Assembly (NCBI GenBank): GCA_964247135.1
Contig: CAXTTL010000169.1
Location: forward strand, 1 to 10,610
Origin: an uncultured Deinococcales bacterium
Lineage (GTDB): Bacteria; Deinococcota; Deinococci; Deinococcales; JAAFIG01
Direction: 5' to 3'
Length of the DNA stretch: 10,610 nt
In this document: one piece after another, positions 1 through 10,610 of the stretch
Layout of the letters: each line of letters opens with the position of its first letter
How positions within the stretch are numbered: position 1 is the stretch's first letter
Position numbers and translations under genes: made by a program
Notes under the pieces: model-generated
Database searches by the model: none
What the model was told of the DNA's origin: nothing
The model's input: the letters and a program-made list of their open reading frames with translations, nothing else

Positions 1-7
1 TCTTCAT
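1..7 (-). CDS. First codons of a downstream gene (partial; possibly a PtuB-like HNH endonuclease)
   Basis: Minus strand reads ...GAA TCT GAA TGA AGA. The ATPase stop TGA (6-4) overlaps an ATG (7-5) in an ATGA coupling, giving M-K-. The product is inferred only from context. Confidence 0.45.
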
Positions 8-1410
8 TCAGATTCCTCGAGAAATGATATCAGTGCTTCCGCTCGAGTAATTTCAGGGTCTTCAATACCAAGCGTTTTCTGAATTTTTGCAATCATCTCT
101 CGAGCCGCAACAAAATCCTCGGCATCCACTTTACGGAACAATTCTTGAAGTTCCGCATCAATGGCAGCATTTCTCGAGGGCGCACCCATGAGTTCTTCTA
201 GCACACGGTTAGAATCCAAACCCAAAGCTTGCGGCGGAATCCATTGAATGACCTTTCCGGTTTCGTCTCGGGTTAAAAATCGAATGCACTCGGCTGGAAC
301 TTCGCCAATGATTTGCGGCGAGTGCGTGGTGATAATAAATTGGCAGTTCTGAAAAGTTGCCGTTAAACGCCTTAGCGCGTCCCGTTGCCAACTTGGGTGC
401 AAGTGAAGCTCGAGTTCATCAATTAAGACAATCGCTTTACCCTCCGCAATTGGGTTGCTCGAGCTTGGGTTTGCCAGTGCCAGCCGCCGTGTTAAATCAA
501 ACACCAGCACCAGCAAACCGCGTTCACCGTCTGAGAGTTGCCCTAACTCGAGCGCCACACCGTTTTTGTCCACGATAAGGCGTGGTTTGGGTGTTTCTTC
601 GAGGCGCAAGTTAGAAAATTCTCGAATGAACGTTTCTACTGACTTACGCAATGCCGTCAACAAAAATTCGCGTTTTTCTTTTGTATCAGGGTTGTCCGAT
701 TGCTCGAGAAATTTAAACCAGTGCATGAAATGTCGGAGGTCAATTTCGGTTTCTTGAAGCGCATTTTCAAACGCTTGGTCTATGCCAAACGGAATACTCT
801 CGAGCGGTTTGGTAACTCTTTTAAAAATGTGCCGAAGAGGTGAATAGTAAACTGCGAACGGTAAGTCTGGTTTTGCTCGTAAGTCTGAGACTGAAACTTG
901 CAAAGGACGATTTAAAAGTCCAAGACCAAACTCAAATTCCATTATTTCCCATTGCAAAGCATATTGATCTTCACGGGATGTCAATAAGGCTTTATAACCT
1001 CGAATTTTACCGTTAGCATTGGATAACGCGGGTTTATCTTTGCGTTGCTTAAAAAGCAAAGCATCAGTAGTAACTTTTTCAAGCTCTTTCATCCAAATTT
1101 CACGCCATTTTTGACTGCTCGAGCTTCGCTGGATTGCCGCCCGAAACGTAATATTATCAATTTTAATTTCGCAGCCCACATTTAACGATGATTGGTCACT
1201 TTGCACGTCATCTTCTGTGAAACTGGCTTTAACCATTTTGTCAAAAGCAACATCTTTTAAAAGCCTCGAGAAAAGCACCCGCAGTGCATGAAGCACACTG
1301 CTTTTGCCCACACCGTTAATACCCGCAATGACATTCACTTTTTCGTGAAAGTCAATCTCGAGTTGTTCAAAGCCCCTGTAATTGGTCAGGCTGAGGTTTT
1401 TGAGGATCAC
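4..1410 (-). CDS. ABC/SMC-like AAA ATPase, PtuA-like (Septu / retron effector ATPase family)
   Basis: 468 aa, GTG start overlapping the hsdS stop (GTGA). N-terminal LKNLSLTNYRGF, Walker A GINGVGKS, signature LSDGERG, Walker B/D-loop IVLIDELELHLHP, H-loop TTHSP. C-terminal helical tail (GLDSNRVLEELMG...DPEITRAEALISFLE) of the kind seen in PtuA-type ATPases. No TM segments or TOPRIM domain evident. Confidence 0.88.
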   Translation of the reverse strand: MILKNLSLTNYRGFEQLEIDFHEKVNVIAGINGVGKSSVLHALRVLFSRLLKDVAFDKMVKASFTEDDVQSDQSSLNVGCEIKIDNITFRAAIQRSSSSQKWREIWMKELEKVTTDALLFKQRKDKPALSNANGKIRGYKALLTSREDQYALQWEIMEFEFGLGLLNRPLQVSVSDLRAKPDLPFAVYYSPLRHIFKRVTKPLESIPFGIDQAFENALQETEIDLRHFMHWFKFLEQSDNPDTKEKREFLLTALRKSVETFIREFSNLRLEETPKPRLIVDKNGVALELGQLSDGERGLLVLVFDLTRRLALANPSSSNPIAEGKAIVLIDELELHLHPSWQRDALRRLTATFQNCQFIITTHSPQIIGEVPAECIRFLTRDETGKVIQWIPPQALGLDSNRVLEELMGAPSRNAAIDAELQELFRKVDAEDFVAAREMIAKIQKTLGIEDPEITRAEALISFLEESE

Positions 1411-2702
1411 GAGCTTACTTTATCAAACTCGAGTTGTCCTGTGACGGCTGCGGTAATCAGTGCGCTGCGCCGTTCGCGTAGAAGCTCGAGGGAATAATCA
1501 AGCTCTTTTTTGAATTCCGCATTTTTTCGTGTTTCTACCGCAACAGTTGCAACAATTTTGCTTTGTTCTGCAAGTGTTGGAACTGGAATTTTCATGTCAA
1601 GAAATGATTCGGGGTAAAGCCGAAGCCGTGATGACCAAACGCCTTTCGAGAATCGAATGACTTCAGCAACAAATGGTTTAGACCGACAGAACAATTCTAC
1701 ATACTCCGTTTTAAGTTGTTCCCCAGGCGTATAAACATGATATGCAGGACTAACAATCCCTTCTTGCCAAGCAATTCCCATTGCTCCCATCCATGCCCAA
1801 AGCGTGTTAATGACAAAATCACCAGGTTGACAGCATTTATAACCGGTCATGTCTTCTGCTTTAAACATGTTCACGTCTTTTTCGGCTCTCGAGGTCACGC
1901 CCGTAATGTGCGAAACCGTGAGCAATTCCTCTTCTCCCGCTTCTGAAACTTCCTCGCGTAACGTAAAAAACTGTTTTGCTCGCTCGAGCTTCCAATGTTC
2001 TGGTATTTTCCCCAGCCACTCGAGACCAGATTCTTTCATTGGCGCACTTGGGTTTAACCCTTTGGTCACAGCCTGACTGATTAACGCAGCGCGTTTCTCC
2101 TCGAGCAAGTCCAGCATTCGTTCTTTCTCGAGAATCAAAGCATCAATTTGTGTGGTTTCGGAATCCAAGTAATCTGCAATGCGTTTTTGAACCTCGAGCG
2201 GGGGAATGGGCAATGGCAAATCCCCAATGGCATCTTTTGGCAATCCAAATCTCGTCACGCCAGTAGCTTCAAGCTCGAGAGACAGACGAATGGCTTTCGC
2301 TTGCAAGCACCGCAAGAGAAAACGCCCATCCAATTTTTCACTGTCGGGACGTAGCAAAGCGAGGTGATACCCGCATACAAGATCATCGGCTGTTTCTTTA
2401 ACCAGCGCAGGAATTGCAATGTCATCCCAAGATTCGGAATCCTTTGTGATGATGACATCGTTCTCGAGTAAACCGAATTTTTCGATTTCCTCAAATGTTG
2501 CAGTAGATTTCATGAACTCGAGATTCAGTGTGATGAAATCATTTTTGTAAACGTCAGTGTAATTGCAAAGCCTGACTGGTTCTTCGTCTGACGATGGGAT
2601 TTTATTAACGTTGCTGACGGTATGAAAAGCCACTCGTTTAAGCGGCTTTACTTCCCATCCTGATGGGATTTGTTGAATCCAATCAATGTGGGATACTTTC
2701 AT
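1407..2702 (-). CDS. hsdS: Type I restriction-modification specificity subunit
   Basis: 431 aa with two TRDs, each followed by a conserved helical region: LPIPPLEVQKRIADYLD...EKRAALISQAVTKGL...SGLEWLGKIPEHW and IPVPTLAEQSKIV...RERRSALITAAVTGQ. N-terminal WIQQIPSGWEV. SD-like AAGGTGAT just upstream of the ATG. Confidence 0.96.
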   Translation of the reverse strand: MKVSHIDWIQQIPSGWEVKPLKRVAFHTVSNVNKIPSSDEEPVRLCNYTDVYKNDFITLNLEFMKSTATFEEIEKFGLLENDVIITKDSESWDDIAIPALVKETADDLVCGYHLALLRPDSEKLDGRFLLRCLQAKAIRLSLELEATGVTRFGLPKDAIGDLPLPIPPLEVQKRIADYLDSETTQIDALILEKERMLDLLEEKRAALISQAVTKGLNPSAPMKESGLEWLGKIPEHWKLERAKQFFTLREEVSEAGEEELLTVSHITGVTSRAEKDVNMFKAEDMTGYKCCQPGDFVINTLWAWMGAMGIAWQEGIVSPAYHVYTPGEQLKTEYVELFCRSKPFVAEVIRFSKGVWSSRLRLYPESFLDMKIPVPTLAEQSKIVATVAVETRKNAEFKKELDYSLELLRERRSALITAAVTGQLEFDKVSS

Positions 2703-2706
2703 TCGA

Positions 2707-2713
2707 TCACCTT
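2707..2713 (-). promoter_or_regulatory. Shine-Dalgarno site of hsdS
   Basis: Minus strand reads AAGGTGA-TCGA-ATG, complementary to the 16S rRNA 3' end. Confidence 0.65.
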
Positions 2714-2809
2714 GCTTAGAGCGAGTTGTTGTTTACAGCTTGTAGGTAAAAAACTTTAATCTACTACAGATTACAGGTTAACACACACGGCAAATCAACC
2801 GCAGCACGG

Positions 2810-2815
2810 TATAAT
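2810..2815 (+). promoter_or_regulatory. -10 box for a leaderless transcript of the 64-aa gene
   Basis: Perfect TATAAT followed by 6 nt (GACCGT) and the ATG at 2822, with no SD. Confidence 0.7.
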
Positions 2816-2821
2816 GACCGT

Positions 2822-3016
2822 ATGAGTCAACTCGAGGTTTTAGAAAAACAAATTCTGGAATTGCCAAAAGCAGACCGTGACACCCTGCGGGACTGGTTTT
2901 TAGAACTCGAGTCCGAAGCTTGGGATTTGCAAATCGAAGCGGATGCGGCTTCGGGTAAATTGAAGGCTGTAGAGGATGATGCTCGAGCACAGATTTTAAT
3001 GGGTGACTGCGCTTAA
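2822..3016 (+). CDS. Small acidic protein resembling addiction-module antitoxins (orphan)
   Basis: 64 aa with its own -10 box. The pattern LEKQILELP..DR..LRDWF.E....AWD.QIEADA.SGKL resembles small antitoxin-like proteins usually encoded just before RelE/ParE-like toxins (recognition from memory). Its 3' end overlaps the hsdM 3' end by 21 bp. Confidence 0.7.
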   Translation: MSQLEVLEKQILELPKADRDTLRDWFLELESEAWDLQIEADAASGKLKAVEDDARAQILMGDCA

Positions 3017-5176
3017 CAATTTTAAAATCCGTGCTTCCACCTCGCTCAATTCTTGGTCTATCACCTCGAGCGCCCGTGGTGGGTCGTACTTAAAAAACTC
3101 GCGGTTGAAGTTGATCTCGTAACCTTTCTTACCTGCGCCACCGTCTTTTTCGTCGGCTGCGTCTGGGTCTATCCAGGCATCTGGCACGAACGGGCGCACT
3201 TCGCGCAAGAAAAACGTGGCAATGTCTTCAGAAAGCGGTACGTTTTCAGAATCGCGGAGTTTCGGGTCGGGTTCGTACTTTGTGTCTTTCTTGGTTTTGG
3301 CGGCTCGAGTAATGCCAAAAATCTCGTCGAGTTCGGTTTGTGTTAAGTGCGCTGGAATGCTGTGGTCTGGGAAGTGAATCTGACCGATGCTGCCCGCAAA
3401 ATGACCCGTTTCTTTAATCACGGGTGCTGCCAACGGGTCGGTTTGGGTGAACACGTCTCTGAAGAATTTACGGATTTTGGCTGTCCATTTGATCTTTTGT
3501 TTTTTCACCAGCGTTTCAACACCGTCCCGAACAATATTCCAGTCGTGGTGTGCCGTATTACCAAATTGTGGCTCGAGTATCCGAATCAAATCCAAGTATT
3601 CGGGTGCGGCGTCCAAGAAGATTTCTTTGGCTTCTCGAGTGATCTGAAAACGCAGTCGTAACGGGCGTTCGACGGTAATGCGGCGGTAGCCAAAGTATTT
3701 GCTGTCAAAAATTTTGCAATGCTGGCTGGGAACAAACGCGCCGTGTTCGCGGGTGATGTCAACAATGGTTTGGTCGTTTAAATACCGTCGTTTGTCGCCC
3801 AAACTGCGCCGCATTGGTGTCCAGCGTTCTCGAGCGTCTATCAATTGAATTTTGTGTTTGCGTTCTTTGACTTTGCGGTTGGTGACAATCCAAACGAACG
3901 TGCCAATGCCGGTGTTGTAAAACATTTGTTCGGGCAGGGCAACAATGGCTTCGAGCCAATCGTTTTCGATCATCCAACGTCGTATTTCGCTTTCGCCACT
4001 GCCAGCGCCGCCTGTGAACAACGGGCTGCCGTTAAAAACCACGGCGGCTCGAGACCCACCATTGTCTTTTTGGTTGTTAAAAAGTGGGGCATTCTCGAGT
4101 TTGGTGTTGGGTTTGTTGATGGGTTCAAATTTGGCGACCATGTGCAGCAAGAACAGCAACGCGCCGTCGTTGACCCTGGGTAGTTTTGGTCCGAAACGTC
4201 CTGCGTAGCCACGGTTTTGGTGTTCGTTTTCTATAATTTGTTGTTGCCCTTTCCAATCCACGCCAAATGGCGGGTTGGCGAGCAGGTAATCGAATTTCGA
4301 GGGGAGTTTGGAATCTTCGGATTCCCTGAATTGATCGTTGGTTAAGGTGTTCCCAAGGGCAATGTGGCTGCGTTGGTTGCCTTTCATGAGCAAATCGGAT
4401 GCGGCAACGGCGTAAGAGCGTGGGTTGTAATCTTGTCCGTACACGAAAACTTCGGCTTTGGGGTTATGCTCGAGAATCCAATTTTGCCCTTCGGAAAGCA
4501 TTCCGCCCGTGCCACACGTTGGGTCGTAAATGGTTATGATTTTGTTGTCTTTGGTTAAAATTTCTGTGTCAGGCTCGAGCAGCAGGTTGACCATCAGTCG
4601 AATCACTTCGCGGGGGGTGAAGTGATCGCCTGCGGTTTCGTTGGCATCTTCGTTAAAGCGTCTTATCAGGTCTTCAAACAGCAAACCCATGTCAATGTTT
4701 TTGATTCGGCTGGGGTGCAAGTCCATTTTTGCGAATTCACGCACGATCATAAAAAGTCGGTCTGCTTCGAGCAGGCGTTCGATTTCTTTTTCAAAATCAA
4801 AATGCCTGAAAATCTCGCGGACTTCAAAAGAAAACCCGTTCAGGTAATCCATGAAGTGTTCTTTGATGTTGTTCGGGTCGCCAAGTAAAATCTTGAAGTC
4901 TTGTTTGCTGCGGTTATGAAAACCAATATTACCTGCGACAAGGTTTAGGTCTTTGTCGATACGGTCGCCCAGACGCTCAAATTTCCCAATTCGTTTTAAT
5001 TCTTCAAATCGTTCCAACACGGCTGGTTTGGTGTCCTCGAGCACGTAATCGAAGCGACGTAAGACGGTCATGGGCAGCATGACCCGTTCGTACTGGGGTC
5101 GGCGGTAAGGTCCTCGCAGGAGGTCTGCGACGTTCCAGATGTAGTTGGAGAGTTCTTGAACGATTTGATTTGACAT
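2996..5176 (-). CDS. hsdM: Type I restriction-modification methyltransferase subunit (N6-adenine)
   Basis: 726 aa from MSNQIVQELSNYIWNVADLLRG (HsdM N-terminal domain). GDHFTPREVI, motif I YDPTCGTGGML, motif IV LANPPFG, LPEQMFYNTGIGT, and a C-terminal PDPKLRDSENVPL...GYEINFNREFFKY. The ORF-track start at 5392 overlaps the divergent gene and is too long; an alternative ATG at 5236 cannot be excluded. Confidence 0.96.
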   Translation of the reverse strand: MSNQIVQELSNYIWNVADLLRGPYRRPQYERVMLPMTVLRRFDYVLEDTKPAVLERFEELKRIGKFERLGDRIDKDLNLVAGNIGFHNRSKQDFKILLGDPNNIKEHFMDYLNGFSFEVREIFRHFDFEKEIERLLEADRLFMIVREFAKMDLHPSRIKNIDMGLLFEDLIRRFNEDANETAGDHFTPREVIRLMVNLLLEPDTEILTKDNKIITIYDPTCGTGGMLSEGQNWILEHNPKAEVFVYGQDYNPRSYAVAASDLLMKGNQRSHIALGNTLTNDQFRESEDSKLPSKFDYLLANPPFGVDWKGQQQIIENEHQNRGYAGRFGPKLPRVNDGALLFLLHMVAKFEPINKPNTKLENAPLFNNQKDNGGSRAAVVFNGSPLFTGGAGSGESEIRRWMIENDWLEAIVALPEQMFYNTGIGTFVWIVTNRKVKERKHKIQLIDARERWTPMRRSLGDKRRYLNDQTIVDITREHGAFVPSQHCKIFDSKYFGYRRITVERPLRLRFQITREAKEIFLDAAPEYLDLIRILEPQFGNTAHHDWNIVRDGVETLVKKQKIKWTAKIRKFFRDVFTQTDPLAAPVIKETGHFAGSIGQIHFPDHSIPAHLTQTELDEIFGITRAAKTKKDTKYEPDPKLRDSENVPLSEDIATFFLREVRPFVPDAWIDPDAADEKDGGAGKKGYEINFNREFFKYDPPRALEVIDQELSEVEARILKLLSAVTH

Positions 5177-5310: not shown

Positions 5311-6192
5311 ATGACCTTGGCTCGAGTTGCCCCAATCGTTTTCGTTTTCTTGTGGAGCACAGGTTACATCGGCGCAAAGTATGGTTTGCCATTCGCGCCG
5401 CCGTTCACGTTTTTGTTGGTGCGGATGGTGCTGGCATCGCTTGCGTTGCTGCTAATCGCTCGAGTTCTGAAAACACCTTTCCCAAAATCCTGGCTCGAGT
5501 TTTCCCATGCGGCGGTTGCTGGTTTGTTGTTGCACGCTGGTTATTTGGGTGGTGTGTTCATGGCGATCAAACTTGGGATTTCGGCGGGCATCAGTTCGAT
5601 CATCGTGAATTTGCAACCTGTGCTGGTCTCGAGCCTTGCCGCGAAAGTCTTGGGCGAAACGGTCACGGCACGTCAATGGTTGGGTTTGACCCTGGGTTTT
5701 GTGGGTGTGCTGCTGGCGGTTTCCGAAAAGTTTTTGGTTGCCTCGAGCAACCCCGTCAAACCTTGGGGCATCGTGGCTTGCGTGGTGGCGCTCGTCTCGA
5801 GTACGGTTGGAACGATTTACCAGAAACGCAACGCCACCCAGATTCCACTCGTGACTGGAACAATTGTCCAGTATTTCGCGGCGGGTTTGGTGTTCGCGGT
5901 TTTGGCGTTCACGTTCGAGCCAGTGCATATCGATTGGACCTTGCAGTTTGTGTTTGCACTGTCCTGGTTTGTGCTGGTGATTAGCTTGGGCGCGATTTTG
6001 CTTTTAATGTGGCTGATCCGCCAGACTTCTGCCAGCAGCGTCTCGAGTTTGTTTTACCTCGTGCCGCCGTTGACCGCACTCGAGGCTTATGTTTTGTTTG
6101 GCGAACGCCTGGGGGTTGCGGCGTTGCTGGGTTTGGTCTTGTGCGCGGCGGCGGTGGCGCTTGTGGTCAGCGCTCCAAAAACGAAGAGCTAA
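5311..6192 (+). CDS. DMT/EamA family transporter
   Basis: 293 aa, about 10 hydrophobic segments. FVFLWSTGYIGAKYGLPFAPPFTFL..R, LQPVL, LGETV...QWLGL.LGFVGV, and a second repeat SSLFYLVPPLTALEAYVLFGERL. Confidence 0.93.
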   Translation: MTLARVAPIVFVFLWSTGYIGAKYGLPFAPPFTFLLVRMVLASLALLLIARVLKTPFPKSWLEFSHAAVAGLLLHAGYLGGVFMAIKLGISAGISSIIVNLQPVLVSSLAAKVLGETVTARQWLGLTLGFVGVLLAVSEKFLVASSNPVKPWGIVACVVALVSSTVGTIYQKRNATQIPLVTGTIVQYFAAGLVFAVLAFTFEPVHIDWTLQFVFALSWFVLVISLGAILLLMWLIRQTSASSVSSLFYLVPPLTALEAYVLFGERLGVAALLGLVLCAAAVALVVSAPKTKS

Positions 6193-6668
6193 TCTTCTCG
6201 GACGTTTGCCACCGTCCCGCCCGTCATGCGCTCGAGGTGCGCGGGATTCAGTTCAAACAAGCTGTTTGGATGTCCCGCCGCCGCCCAAATGCTGGGGTGC
6301 TCGAGCAAGTCTTGGTCAATGACCACCACGGGTTGCACGGCATGACCGACCGGTGGAATGCCGCCTATCGCAAATCCGGTGCTCGAGCGGACAAAATCGG
6401 GGCTGGCTCGAGAAATACTTTCACCAATGATTTCAGCAACCCGAGATTCATTGACGCGGTTTGAACCCGAGGCGATCACCAGCACAGGTTTGCCCGTTTC
6501 GGAGATAAAAATCAAACTCTTGGCAATTTGCGCGACACTGCAATTCACGGCATCGGCGGCTTGTTGCGCGGTTTTGACGGGAATCTCGAGTTCAATGACT
6601 TTATGCTCGAGGTTGAAGGTATCGAGCACGTCTTGAACTTTTTGGGCGCTGGAGCGAAGGGATTTCAT
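6189..6668 (-). CDS. YbaK/EbsC family protein (aminoacyl-tRNA editing / deacylase domain)
   Basis: 159 aa. TAQQAADAV.CSVAQIAKSLIF (conserved Lys), PVLVIASGSNRV, TGFAIGGIPPVGH (GGxxP loop), IWAAAGHP. Convergent 4-bp overlap with the EamA gene stop. Confidence 0.93.
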   Translation of the reverse strand: MKSLRSSAQKVQDVLDTFNLEHKVIELEIPVKTAQQAADAVNCSVAQIAKSLIFISETGKPVLVIASGSNRVNESRVAEIIGESISRASPDFVRSSTGFAIGGIPPVGHAVQPVVVIDQDLLEHPSIWAAAGHPNSLFELNPAHLERMTGGTVANVRED

Positions 6669-6674
6669 GGCTCG

Positions 6675-6683
6675 AGAATATCA
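6675..6683 (-). promoter_or_regulatory. Extended -10 promoter, leaderless start of the YbaK gene
   Basis: Minus strand TGA-TATTCT-CGAGCC-ATG (TGn + TANNNT + 6 nt + start), no SD. Confidence 0.65.
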
Positions 6684-6720
6684 AATGCTCAACTCGAGAA
6701 TGACTTTCGAGCGTCAAGAT

Positions 6721-6750
6721 ATTTTTGTGATACCTTCAATGCACAAAAAT
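6721..6750. repeat. 9-bp inverted repeat (possible operator or hairpin)
   Basis: ATTTTTGTG (6721-6729), 12-nt spacer, CACAAAAAT (6742-6750), between the divergent YbaK gene and the ybjQ-like remnant. Confidence 0.45.
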
Positions 6751-6770
6751 CTTCAAACCCGAGGTAAACC

Positions 6771-6924
6771 ATGAGTGTCAAATCGCTATCACGTTGTTTA
6801 CTTCGTTTGCCGAGAAAGCCAGGGAAGAGGCGTATGAATTGACGGTTGACCATGCCAAGGTCCGCGGCGTAAACGCGATCATTGCCATGAGCTACGACGC
6901 CACGAGATCATGGTAGGCATTGCC
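6771..6924 (+). pseudogene. Degraded YbjQ/UPF0145 family gene
   Basis: GAGG SD and ATG at 6771 open only a 23-codon frame. Another frame from 6788 reads ITLFTSFAEKAREEAYELTVDHAKVRGVNAIIAMSYDAT, then after a 1-nt frameshift EIMVGIA. This matches the C-terminal half of YbjQ proteins (AREEA...A...GANAII.MRYD..EI). The N-terminal half and the final YGTAV strand are missing. Confidence 0.78.
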
Positions 6925-6937
6925 AAATCTTGTATCT

Positions 6938-7549
6938 TCAGTTGGATTTGGGTTTACCACGTTGATAGTAGCGTTTCATTTTATCTCTCGAGCCACAAGT
7001 GTTCATGCTGCACCAGCGTCGCAAACCATTTTTACTGGTGTCCAGAAACATCCAACCACAACCTGGGCAGGCTTTGAGTTTGCAGCTACCGCTCGAGATT
7101 AAAAGCTCGAACATCGAGTTCACCAATTTGTGCAATGGTGTGTTGAGATCGGTTGTGTCCTGCCATTGCACTGACAAACCATCGTCTTTTTGCTTAAGTT
7201 TGGCGGCTTTTACGGCTTGTGCAAAAAGCATTTTGATCTTCTCAAGATCATCGTCATTTGGTTTTTGTTGTGTTGTAAAACTTGACAATACCCGTTTGAC
7301 AAGGGCACGAAACTCAAGTATCTGATTGAATGCGCGGTTCGCAAGGCGGGTTTGACTTAATGTACGCTCTCTCAGTATTTTGACCTGATCTTTTGACAAC
7401 ACATTGGCGTACAGGCACCACTCGAGAAAGGTTTCGTAACTCTCGAGGTAGTCGTGCTGTTGATCGTCGTAATCAATCAATGAATTGACAAAATCAAGGC
7501 AAATGGCATTGCCGACAAATTCGAGTGTTTCAAGCGTTCGATACGACAT
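6938..7549 (-). CDS. ABATE / CGNR zinc-finger protein (putative transcription regulator)
   Basis: 203 aa. N-terminal FVGNAICLDFVNS...DYL..Y..FLEW (ABATE-like) and C-terminal LKACPGCGWMFLDTSKNGLRRWCSMNTCGSRDKMKRYYQR (zf-CGNR, four Cys). Confidence 0.93.
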   Translation of the reverse strand: MSYRTLETLEFVGNAICLDFVNSLIDYDDQQHDYLESYETFLEWCLYANVLSKDQVKILRERTLSQTRLANRAFNQILEFRALVKRVLSSFTTQQKPNDDDLEKIKMLFAQAVKAAKLKQKDDGLSVQWQDTTDLNTPLHKLVNSMFELLISSGSCKLKACPGCGWMFLDTSKNGLRRWCSMNTCGSRDKMKRYYQRGKPKSN

Positions 7550-7555
7550 CGTTTT

Positions 7556-7564
7556 ATCTTACCA
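7556..7564 (-). promoter_or_regulatory. Extended -10 promoter, leaderless start of the CGNR gene
   Basis: Minus strand TGG-TAAGAT-AAAACG-ATG; overlaps the left arm of palindrome 1. Confidence 0.7.
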
Positions 7565-7587
7565 TTAAAATTCACTTGACAGGTAAG
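7558..7587. promoter_or_regulatory. Putative operator 1 (CTTACC-N18-GGTAAG)
   Basis: CTTACCATTAAAATTCACTTGACAGGTAAG, an imperfect 30-bp palindrome with the same arms and spacing as operator 2. Confidence 0.75.
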
Positions 7588-7604
7588 AGAATTAATCTTA
7601 CCAT
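7576..7604 (+). promoter_or_regulatory. Sigma70-type promoter of the MFS gene
   Basis: TTGACA (7576-7581), exactly 17 nt, TACCAT (7599-7604). Confidence 0.75.
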
Positions 7605-7626
7605 TGAAATATATTTCAATGGTAAG
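7597..7626. promoter_or_regulatory. Putative operator 2 (perfect 30-bp palindrome)
   Basis: CTTACCATTGAAATATATTTCAATGGTAAG equals its own reverse complement; it covers the MFS -10 box and expected transcription start. Confidence 0.8.
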
Positions 7627-7637
7627 GAAGTACTGTG

Positions 7638-8858
7638 ATGTCAACACCAACCGCAGCCACACCAAAACGCAATCTCAACCTGAAATGGCTAACGACTGGA
7701 AATGGATTCTCGCAACTTGGCGATGGGTTATACCAATTCACCCTGCCAATCGTTGCGGTCTCAATGACACGCGATCCAAATTTGATTGCAGGTTTGAATG
7801 TGATGTTGAGTTTGCCGTGGCTGATCTTTGCACTGCTTGCGGGGCGAATCGTGGATCACTCTGACCGACGCCGTTTAATGATTGCAGTCAACATCGCTCG
7901 CGCAATTGTTTTGCTGGGTCTAACCTTGGGTTTGTACTTTCATTTTGTTTCAATACTGCTCTTGTACGCTGTTGCCGTGCTGCTTGGTATTGGAGAAACT
8001 CTTGTTGATACTGCGCTTACCAGCATCATTCCAAGCCTCACCTCGAGTCATGAACGAAGCGTCGCCAACGCCCGAATTGAGGCTGGAATCAACATCTTCA
8101 ATCAATTTGTTGCACCACCACTGGCAGGTATCCTGACGGCAATCAGTATCATGCTCTCCTGCGGCATCAGTACAATTTTGTACGCGTTCAGCACCATCAG
8201 CTTAAAAAAAATTCGAGGACAATTTAAACCTCCAGTCTCGAGTGTCCGCCCGTTCTGGACGGAATTTCTGGTTGGATTGCATTTTTTGTGGCGGCAACCC
8301 CTGCTACGCATTCTGACCCTATTGACTGCCGCCATGAACTTGTGCTGGTCGTTCTGGAGTGCGGTCTTGGTGTTGTTTGTCATCAAACCTGGGACTCTGG
8401 GACTCGGTACTTTTGAGTACAGTTTGCTGCTCACCGCAATGGCACTTGGTGGCACGCTGGGCGCAAATATATGCACCACCCTCGAGCGTTATTTTGGAAG
8501 GCGCCCAGTTCTAATGCTTGATTTGCTTGGCACTGTCATTTTGGTGGTTGCTCCTGCCATTACCACAAATCCATTTTTGATTGGCACATCCATGTTTGTG
8601 GGCGGTCTTGGCTCGAGCTTATGGCGAATCGTTGTTGCCACAATCCGCCAACAACTTGTCCCAGACGAATTGCTTGGACGTGTATACACCGCCAACCGTT
8701 TTATCACCTGGGGGATTAGTCCGATTGGGGCTTTTCTGGCAGGTGGTATTGGCTCGAGATTTGGAGTGCAATTGGTCTTCGCCATTGGTGGAATACTTGG
8801 TGGGATGGTGCTTTTGTGGTTTATTCTTGTGTCAAAAAACCTGAATTTCGAAGCGTAA
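7638..8858 (+). CDS. MFS transporter (DHA3 / macrolide-efflux-like, EntS/MefA-type)
   Basis: About 12 hydrophobic segments. FSQLGDGL...TLP, LPWLIFALLAGRIVDHSDRRRLM (MFS motif A), TIRQQLVPDELLGRV, PIGAFLAG. SD AAGGAAG at 7624-7630 favours ATG 7638 over GTG 7635. Confidence 0.93.
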   Translation: MSTPTAATPKRNLNLKWLTTGNGFSQLGDGLYQFTLPIVAVSMTRDPNLIAGLNVMLSLPWLIFALLAGRIVDHSDRRRLMIAVNIARAIVLLGLTLGLYFHFVSILLLYAVAVLLGIGETLVDTALTSIIPSLTSSHERSVANARIEAGINIFNQFVAPPLAGILTAISIMLSCGISTILYAFSTISLKKIRGQFKPPVSSVRPFWTEFLVGLHFLWRQPLLRILTLLTAAMNLCWSFWSAVLVLFVIKPGTLGLGTFEYSLLLTAMALGGTLGANICTTLERYFGRRPVLMLDLLGTVILVVAPAITTNPFLIGTSMFVGGLGSSLWRIVVATIRQQLVPDELLGRVYTANRFITWGISPIGAFLAGGIGSRFGVQLVFAIGGILGGMVLLWFILVSKNLNFEA

Positions 8859-8933
8859 CGCGAAAAAATTAACAAAGATACAAGCACATTGTCTTTACGA
8901 GCCATCGTCACGTTCGTCCCGCCCTCGGCGCGT

Positions 8934-8939
8934 TAGACT
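8934..8939 (+). promoter_or_regulatory. -10 box, leaderless start of the ABC permease gene
   Basis: TAGACT-CGAGCC-ATG(8946), no SD. Confidence 0.65.
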
Positions 8940-8945
8940 CGAGCC

Positions 8946-10118
8946 ATGAATTTCGCAGACTTATTTGTTCTCGCGCAACGCGGTTTGCTGCGCCGTCCGG
9001 TCAGGACGCTTCTGACCGTGCTGGGTATTGTTGTGGCGGTGGCGTCGATGGTCATCTTCCTCAGTTTGGGCGAAGGATTCAGACGCGCTTTGGGCGCCGA
9101 GATCAGCAACGTCGGACCGGATTTGCAAGTCACCCTGGCGGGCAACGAAGGCTCGAGCGTCTTTGGCAGCCCAATTCCCGACGTGCCGCTCGAGAATGCC
9201 AAACGCTTTGAAGATGTCGCTCAGGAACTCGGTATCAAACAAGTCATTCCGTACATTCTGACGGCTCGAGGCAGTTTTTCGGGGCAGGGTTATCTGATTG
9301 CGGGGTATCCGTTTGAACGCGTGCCGCTGGGCGACATTTACCCAAATCTCAAATTGCTCGAGGGCAAGATGTTCACGCCCCAAGACGCGTTCTCGAACAT
9401 TGCGGTGGTCGGTTCGACGGCAGCCAAAAATGCCAGTTTAAAACTGGGCAGTGTCTTGCGCTTAAACCGTGACGTCAGTTTTAAAGTGGTTGGGATTTTG
9501 CAAAAAGGTGATGGTTTTACCGATTCCTTTATTTTTGTTCCGTTCGGGGCACTGGCAAAAGGCATCGGCATTGCCAACCGAGCCACAGGCATAGCCATCA
9601 AACTGAACGATGCCGGAGATTCGCGCAAAGTCGCCAATGCGATCAACAAAAGATTCCCAGATTTGAGCGCCAAAACCCAAGGTGATGTCTTGAGCATTCT
9701 GGACAAAGCCATCGCCATCGGCGACGCGTTTCGCTTCGGCATCAGCTTAATTTCCCTGATCGTCGGCGGTCTTGCCGTGGCGAACACCGTCATGATGGGC
9801 GTCTACGAGCGAACCCGAGAGTTTGGGGTAATTCGGGCGATAGGCGCAAAACCCAGTTTTGTCTTCAGCCTGGTCGTGCTCGAGAGTATGCTGCTGGCTT
9901 TGATCGGCGGCGCTGGTGGCGTGTTGGTCGGTTACTTGGGTTCGTTCGTGGTGAATTTTGCCGTGCGCGATCTGGTCAGCGTGTCCATCGCCGCCGTGAC
10001 CCCAAGGTTGATTTTGTTGGCGGTCGGCGTGGCGGCGGTGCTCGGCTTGTTCGCGGGTTTACTGCCCGCAAGGACTGCGAGCAAGCTCGTCATCACCCAA
10101 GCCCTGGGAAGGAATTAA
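8946..10118 (+). CDS. ABC transporter permease, MacB/FtsX family
   Basis: 390 aa. RRPVRTLLTVLGIVVAVAS (TM1), a large extracytoplasmic domain, then ISLIVGGLAVANTVMMGVYERTREFGVIRAIGA and GLFAGLLPARTASKL (FtsX domain). Confidence 0.95.
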   Translation: MNFADLFVLAQRGLLRRPVRTLLTVLGIVVAVASMVIFLSLGEGFRRALGAEISNVGPDLQVTLAGNEGSSVFGSPIPDVPLENAKRFEDVAQELGIKQVIPYILTARGSFSGQGYLIAGYPFERVPLGDIYPNLKLLEGKMFTPQDAFSNIAVVGSTAAKNASLKLGSVLRLNRDVSFKVVGILQKGDGFTDSFIFVPFGALAKGIGIANRATGIAIKLNDAGDSRKVANAINKRFPDLSAKTQGDVLSILDKAIAIGDAFRFGISLISLIVGGLAVANTVMMGVYERTREFGVIRAIGAKPSFVFSLVVLESMLLALIGGAGGVLVGYLGSFVVNFAVRDLVSVSIAAVTPRLILLAVGVAAVLGLFAGLLPARTASKLVITQALGRN

Positions 10119-10124
10119 GCACCT

Positions 10125-10610
10125 GTGAGCACGATTTTACAAGCCAGCGACATCTCCAAAGTCTACCCCAGCGGCGAGGACACCGTGACCGCCCTCAACC
10201 ACCTGTCGCTCGAGTTTGCTGCGGGTCGAATCACCGCCATCGTCGGTCCAAGCGGGTCTGGCAAAAGCACGCTCTTAAATTTGCTGGCGGGTTTTGATGT
10301 TCCCTCGAGCGGCTTTGTCACCCACAACGGCAACAGCATCACCGCCATGCCAGAAACCACACTTGCCAGTTACCGACTGGCGCATTTTGGATTTATTTTT
10401 CAGAATTACAACCTCATCAGCATTTTAAACGCTCAGGAAAACGTCGAACTACCGCTCTCTCTGGCGAACGTGCCAAGGCTCGAGCGCACCAAACGCGCCA
10501 AAGAATTGCTATCTCGAGTTGGGCTGGGCAAACGCAGCACCCACCGTCCAAATCAACTTTCTGGCGGCGAACAACAACGCGTCGCCATCGCCAGGGCGCT
10601 TGCGACCAAT
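10125..10610 (+). CDS. ABC transporter ATP-binding protein, LolD/MacB-like (partial, runs off the window)
   Basis: Not in the ORF track. GTG start 6 nt after the permease stop: [31 protein letters not shown]...[18 protein letters not shown]...[10 protein letters not shown]...[16 protein letters not shown]. Confidence 0.95.

Follow-up and report, generated by a model that had tools for sequence, protein, structure and literature searches.

PtuA, the ABC ATPase of the defense system Septu, forms dimers whose C-terminal helices hold the HNH protein PtuB. When active, PtuB cleaves tRNA or DNA, which arrests the infected cell. PtuA proteins bound to retrons are reported to cluster by partner, which PtuB does not do (bioRxiv 2025.05.10.653283). 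PrrC provides the reported precedent for a toxin guarded by the Hsd proteins of a type I restriction-modification (R-M) enzyme (PMC3458546; PMC12707154), and prrC is described as always linked to R-M genes (PMC3458546). For embedded defense genes in general, Payne et al. present the choice between coupling and riding along as open (bioRxiv 2024.01.29.577857). The locus described here lies on contig C169 of an uncultured Deinococcales bacterium; the window is this entire contig (10,610 nt), and the source genome is 84% complete. It carries hsdM, hsdS, and a ptuA gene, all on the minus strand and in that order, which bears out the original prediction, an earlier note made from the letters of the window. 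That prediction went on to propose that the type I enzyme restrains a PtuAB-like toxin, an interpretation that is partly supported by the sequence comparisons given below.

A PtuA clade and its hsd operon

The gene at 4..1410 (minus strand, 468 aa) is an intact PtuA of the Septu type. The PADLOC check of the ATPase assignment returned PtuA1 over residues 1-466 (E = 1.8 × 10−118), the NCBIfam retron PtuA model scores it at 268 bits with a cut-off of 500, and Pfam finds ATPase families alone, with no fused anticodon nuclease domain. The motifs present are Walker A as GINGVGKS, the signature as LSDGE, Walker B as VLIDE, LHLHP, and TTHSP, and the Walker A and B, signature, D-loop, and H-loop columns are conserved among homologues, so that all catalytic motifs are standard. 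The predicted model, with a pLDDT (predicted local distance difference test) score of 91.5, has a helical hairpin insert at about 100-144 and a C-terminal tail of 3 helices, and its best fold matches are Eco7 PtuA (9kjy) and Septu PtuA (8eea) with template modeling scores of 0.71-0.72. The closest named ATPase relative within the family is labelled Deinococcota (P0007, whose sequence reads as that of the G131 ATPase).

Upstream, hsdS (1407..2702, minus strand) encodes a 431-aa specificity subunit that matches PADLOC Specificity_I (E = 4.4 × 10−95) and Pfam Methylase_S, and comparison of its termini finds no fused extra domain. Its stop overlaps the GTG start of ptuA as GTGA at 1410-1407, just as had been read before. 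The type I features of the window are completed by hsdM (2996..5176, minus strand), a methyltransferase of 726 aa that matches PADLOC MTase_I (E = 1.9 × 10−248) and Pfam N6_Mtase and HsdM_N, contains both motif I (DPTCGTGGML) and motif IV (NPPF), and begins with the ATG at 5176, the same Met at which its homologues begin; its predicted model aligns with PacII M over 435 residues (Z = 27.2, root mean square deviation 3.7). The coupling first proposed holds at the overlap of hsdS with the ATPase gene and fails between hsdM and hsdS, which are separated by 293 nt with a 64-aa open reading frame (ORF) on the plus strand between them. At the other end, the ATPase stop does overlap a start as ATGA at 7-4, and of the next gene only 7 nt are present (1..7, minus strand; ATG AAG, Met-Lys), which from the relatives are the probable first codons of ptuB, cut at the contig end. 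By itself, an A in front of a TGA stop says little; the related loci add weight, the ptuB start overlapping ptuA by the same 4 nt in 26 of the 43 where it was called. The hsdS/ptuA overlap of 4 nt is found in 32 of 41 related loci. The claim that no reverse transcriptase (RT) lies upstream also stands, since hsdS precedes ptuA and the window has no retron RT; a type I-A RT query, from the retron locus L192, has no match in the window or in loci L001-L168. The genome does have one distant RT, on another contig (C4).

In the ATPase phylogeny the close homologues make up a single clade, and their linkage to hsd is consistent, in line with the earlier expectation. In a tree of 92 PtuA rows, from which proteins shorter than 380 or longer than 520 aa were omitted, 36 of the 37 hsd-linked rows, including the window, fall into one group with a Shimodaira-Hasegawa-like approximate likelihood ratio test (SH-aLRT) support of 99, and 0 of the 55 hsd-less rows fall inside it, where hsd-less means that no hsd gene was found by profile in the fetched flank, which is short for some loci. 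The 37th hsd-linked row, placed apart, is an Enterobacter plasmid locus with another type I family. An expanded tree, omitting 24 redundant or long rows, gives a clade of 44 rows with support of 99, and a careful tree of 71 rows, omitting 21 more, gives a clade of 33 rows with support of 100/100, the clade label here leaving aside L101 and L154, which the earlier trees had placed outside. All 119 top database homologues taken without known context fall inside the clade. None of the 15 PtuA proteins in an independent sample of 201 Pseudomonadales genomes falls inside it; they include one from a retron, one embedded in Hma, and two embedded in BREX. Among loci of other PtuA lineages (L194, L195, L199, and L203), L194 lies within Hma and L195 and L199 lie within BREX; the L194 PtuA belongs to a group of 8 rows with good support, so it may be a general pattern for Septu lineages to be host-specific. 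Residues that are the clade's own include R297-G298, beside the signature motif. A motif W[FY]x2-3EDxEN is present in 0 of 44 clade rows versus 55 of 72 other rows; it belongs to the sister lineage and is missing also in distant lineages, so its absence from the clade need not be a loss.

The gene neighborhoods agree with the trees. Every one of the 18 homologue loci with the best scores has hsd genes, and all 43 other clade loci have ptuB and an hsd gene; ptuAB of this clade without hsdMS was never seen among the 43. The proteins encoded downstream in the relatives are PtuB1 HNH proteins, so the expectation that the gene after the ATPase encodes a nuclease is met by an HNH PtuB in each of the 43 loci. 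Where 4 kb upstream were available, hsdM and hsdS are both present (36 of 36 loci), and where 5 kb downstream were available, 29 of 31 have hsdR. The other two, L062 and L085, show no trace of it within 8 kb and retain hsdM-hsdS-ptuAB. The nuclease and Walker motifs of HsdR are intact across the clade, save in truncated or split copies, and HsdS lengths and termini in the clade give no sign of a fused winged-helix module. The operon order in both annotated and unannotated relatives is hsdM-hsdS-ptuA-ptuB(HNH)-hsdR. This five-gene layout is widespread and not unique to the window, and the PtuA clade spans 9 named phyla plus the window's own.

The leftward extension that had been suggested as a way to look for the HNH gene and hsdR stops at the contig end, and the assembly has no overlapping contig with which to extend C169. 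What it does have is contig C215, which starts with a 252-aa HsdR C-terminus, found with clade HsdR queries against the genome; its identity is 55-75% with the HsdR proteins of this lineage and does not exceed 49% with any others. A search of the genome with HSDR_N gave no match, TIGR02646 gave two weak matches, both under cut-off, and clade PtuB queries gave no match anywhere in the assembly. The one public sequencing run that was found contains 6% of the words, and its contigs leave positions 1-217 uncovered. Given the HsdR tail on C215 and the gene order in relatives, the ptuB gene and the greater part of hsdR are probably in a gap of the assembly.

The HsdM side and co-variation within the operon

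The HsdM proteins of these loci also form one clade (34 rows, support 100, with HsdM below 550 aa, those of L115 and L101, omitted), and 33 of the rows have ptuA, in a set that is biased in that most loci were found through PtuA. Sampling from the HsdM side covered 364 genomes of the window's phylum, 401 of Pseudomonadota, 301 of one genus, and viral contigs, and, by motif, 281 genomes from a single class and 56 from a single order. The 301 genomes of one genus gave no new member of the HsdM clade. Seeds aside, the sample produced 21 clade loci, of which 12 have ptuA, 2 do not, and 7 are unscorable, being truncated or remnants. Thus 12 of the 14 scorable loci have ptuA, with the qualification that G131, counted among these, is divided between two contigs and that two are near-copies. 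The 2 without ptuAB are L136, with IetAS in its place, and L167, indicating that the R-M system can drop ptuAB. Among the neighboring HsdM loci, the 36 fetched of more listed include none with ptuA, 32 of them showing hsdS and hsdR, and many neighboring loci carry other cargo. In 72,556 plasmids, clade HsdM was found at the strict threshold only in four Ketogulonicigenium records; viral scans with single proteins gave no match, and E. coli genomes gave no near match.

Two of these loci are of interest for what else the operon type can hold. IetAS (an ATPase and an S8 protease) occurs alone at L136:3913-7522 and, to judge from gene sizes that match, behind ptuAB at L134:2567-6182. The L167 locus encodes a 678-aa HsdS (L167:6714-8750, minus strand) that is extended at its N-terminus by about 250 aa; to the eye, this extra region seems NADAR-like.

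HsdM of the window contains an insert domain at about residues 505-590 (3407..3664, minus strand), modeled as four helices and a hairpin with model confidence of 84-97. The insert is conserved in the PtuAB-linked clade and is different or absent in neighboring HsdM, which carry other inserts at this position.

Correlations of tree distances are 0.85 for HsdM-PtuA, 0.86 for HsdM-HsdR, 0.45 for HsdM-PtuB, and 0.04 for HsdM-HsdS, and PtuA correlates with HsdM at 0.85 versus 0.70-0.73 with HsdR. Taken by segment, PtuA up to residue 370 tracks HsdM, at 0.75-0.76, and fails to track PtuB, at 0.26-0.32. The tail tracks PtuB, at 0.73 overall and at 0.82 and 0.91 within subclades. The PtuA tail contacts PtuB, and their co-variation fits this contact together with swapped PtuB types. 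Gene distance alone is no explanation, since PtuB, whose gene adjoins hsdR, has a correlation of 0.43 with HsdR and the PtuA body, encoded farther away, has 0.56-0.64. By these measures PtuA appears to be of split ancestry, the body going with HsdM and the tail with a swappable PtuB. In alignment A1 there are also mosaic PtuA proteins: the C-terminal third of P0005 is near letter-identical to that of P0002 and the part upstream differs, and the tail of P0003 is unrelated, which points to recombination near Walker B.

A possible guarded toxin or passenger

The reading we tentatively put first, holding it at slightly under an even chance, is that PtuAB is a back-up abortive arm held quiet by HsdM and HsdS until a phage interferes with R-M. 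The predicted PtuB would partner the window PtuA in this arm, the HsdM/HsdS methyltransferase would keep the pair quiet, and the trigger would be an anti-restriction protein of the phage. The ATPase body of PtuA would be the part tuned to the Hsd complex, with HsdM/S and not HsdR as its partner, and the tail with PtuB would act as an exchangeable effector cartridge. The restriction arm would remain active beside PtuAB, which, as indicated by the intact HsdR motifs, would make this a guard on a working enzyme and not a decoy. What recommends a guard is the one-sided dependence, in which R-M can lose ptuAB and ptuAB has never been seen without hsdMS, a pattern that fits the idea, together with the PrrC precedent, the Ronin system, and the clustering of retron PtuA by partner. 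A fuller version, somewhat more doubtful, makes this a third form of Septu control, in which one PtuA lineage was co-opted by one methyltransferase subfamily, HsdM2S docks on and silences the PtuA body, tail and PtuB are swapped, and anti-restriction brings release; that it would then be a PrrC-like guard of independent origin over at least 10 phyla is possible to the same lesser degree.

Several observations weigh against a guard. All of the support is comparative, and linkage alone gives congruent trees. The clade residues, the missing motif, the HsdM insert, and the correlations are traits that kin would have in common, and so they are no proof of co-evolution. Much of the distance correlation stems from two shared subclades; at finer scale HsdM and PtuA share 7 of 30 splits versus 17 of 24 for HsdM and HsdR, and correlations within the two subclades are 0.65 and 0.64 for HsdM-PtuA versus 0.97 and 0.83 for HsdM-HsdR. 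The few shared fine-scale splits indicate that ptuA has moved within the family. Some clade loci are near-copies (L161 and L168). The slot accepts unrelated cargo such as IetAS, and L154, one of the 12 loci with ptuA from the HsdM side, has in the same slot a divergent PtuAB from outside the PtuA clade. Both loci without ptuAB retain the HsdM insert. Other PtuA lineages are found in BREX, Hma, and another type I family, so that Septu embeds readily. In the window itself ptuB is not seen, the contig ending 7 nt into the next gene. Co-folding a PtuA dimer (residues 1-400) with the HsdM insert region (495-655) scored 0.00 in both runs, with controls not folded, and gives no evidence either way.

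Nearly as good an account is that of an autonomous passenger, a self-regulated Septu that entered the operon once, long ago, shares its promoter and its transfers, and senses phage by itself; we consider it a serious possibility that stays short of an even one. Embedding in type I R-M, BREX, and Hma is reported to be common and may reflect either a genomic sink or the transfer of linked genes (bioRxiv 2024.01.29.577857), and stand-alone Septu is reported to defend without an external inhibitor (PMC13096335), which counts also among the points against a guard. The standard catalytic motifs of PtuA, its weak congruence with HsdM at fine scale, and the further cargo that occupies the M-S, S-A, and B-R junctions of clade operons are all what a passenger would lead one to expect. 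It is less at ease with the 43 loci, where 0 clade members lie outside an hsd context even though the sister lineage spans stand-alone, BREX, and other R-M settings, and with the finding that PtuB tracks HsdR less closely than does the PtuA body, which is farther from it.

Type I HsdR is a strong ATPase, and this counts for a third possibility, that of cooperation without inhibition, in which the Hsd complex would give PtuAB a signal or an address and not silence it. We think it unlikely, as we do its variants, in which PtuA would answer the ATP drain or DNA breaks of a translocating HsdR or would itself bind anti-restriction DNA mimics as PARIS does: in their favor are the intact HsdR motifs of the clade and reports that ATP restrains the Septu nuclease (PMC12640716; bioRxiv 2025.05.10.653283) and that Ocr triggers other ABC-ATPase systems, and against them are L062 and L085, with hsdM-hsdS-ptuAB and no hsdR trace within 8 kb, and the better tracking by PtuA of HsdM than of HsdR.

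Surroundings of the operon and comparison with known systems

The 64-aa ORF in the hsdM-hsdS gap (2822..3016, plus strand) overlaps the end of hsdM by 21 nt. It belongs to an unnamed family of proteins of about 66 aa, with an Atlas lead of 0.89 to hypothetical proteins and a weak lead of 0.77 to addiction-module proteins, and it has no match in Pfam, PADLOC, or NCBIfam. No homologue is present in the fetched related loci, so it is not conserved there. A sigma-70 promoter was looked for in 2600-3100 and none was found. The remainder of the window, 5311-10610, encodes housekeeping neighbors with no tie to defense: an EamA transporter, a YbaK-like editing protein, an ABATE/CGNR regulator, and an MFS transporter, and beyond those an ABC permease and an ATPase, both assigned from their sequences; on this side the operon is not within a defense island. 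Elsewhere in the genome (G000) are two further distant ABC ATPase matches, on C280 and C292, with a weak HNH match near the one on C280. By far the commonest hexamer genome-wide is CTCGAG, with 33,925 copies versus about 1,368 expected from base composition, an abundance that presumably recalls the highly iterated palindromes of cyanobacteria. Its density in ptuA and hsdS, 8.5 per kb, equals that elsewhere, which suggests that the operon has been resident in this lineage for a long time.

Each part of this locus is known already, as are Septu, defense embedding, and R-M guards, and current tools would label it "RM type I plus Septu." New are the reciprocal clade test, the sample from the HsdM side, and the split ancestry of PtuA. 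A literature search, covering mostly the starts of abstracts, found no account of a Septu clade that is tied to a single HsdM clade. The trigger of stand-alone Septu is unsettled. The present lineage offers natural comparison sets in cognate and non-cognate HsdM, in loci that lost ptuAB (L136 and L167), in loci with no hsdR (L062 and L085), and in loci with swapped PtuB (L014, L019, and L104). If the guard is real, type I R-M has on two occasions taken on an ABC-ATPase guard that cuts tRNA or DNA, as PrrC and as this lineage, and two unrelated sensors have tamed PtuAB; if it is not, the locus is a well-annotated passenger.

Compared with Septu type I (E. coli, PDB ID: 8EE4 and 8EEA; Septu Ec-B88), the window has the same PtuA fold and motifs, the three-helix tail, PtuB adjoining in relatives, and no RT. 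It differs in that its PtuA falls in a separate clade, always beside hsdMS, with diagnostic residues of its own and without the W[FY]x2-3EDxEN motif of the sister lineage. Retrons of type I-A (Septu type II; Ec78/Eco7 and Ec83) likewise have a PtuAB effector, and their partner-wise clustering of PtuA mirrors that of the hsd-linked PtuA here. Unlike theirs, the window PtuA has no counterpart of the roughly 63-aa N-terminal domain with which retron PtuA contacts RT-msRNA, its residues 3-5 aligning to residues 65-67 of the retron PtuA chains, and the retron PtuA of L192 falls outside the clade.

The PrrC locus of EcoprrI is similar in having an ABC ATPase gene between hsdS and hsdR and in its invariable association with type I R-M, which in this clade holds for 43 of 43 loci. 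PrrC is one protein with a fused anticodon nuclease, whereas here the effector would be a separate HNH protein, and silencing by Hsd and activation by Stp, shown for PrrC, are hypothetical here. The embedded systems of Payne et al. (bioRxiv 2024.01.29.577857) resemble this locus in that a known system is nested co-directionally in hsd, with a back-up role discussed; the main text consulted names Septu in Hma, with no mention of a Septu clade that goes with a single HsdM clade. Ronin (bioRxiv 2023.04.06.535777) is the system in which HsdMS has been proposed to hold back a toxin until anti-restriction proteins set it free. As described, its toxin is a 61-aa membrane protein and its ECOR55 locus is without hsdR, whereas here the gene after hsdS encodes an ATPase of 468 aa, 29 of 31 loci of the lineage have an intact hsdR, and PtuAB is the candidate toxin.

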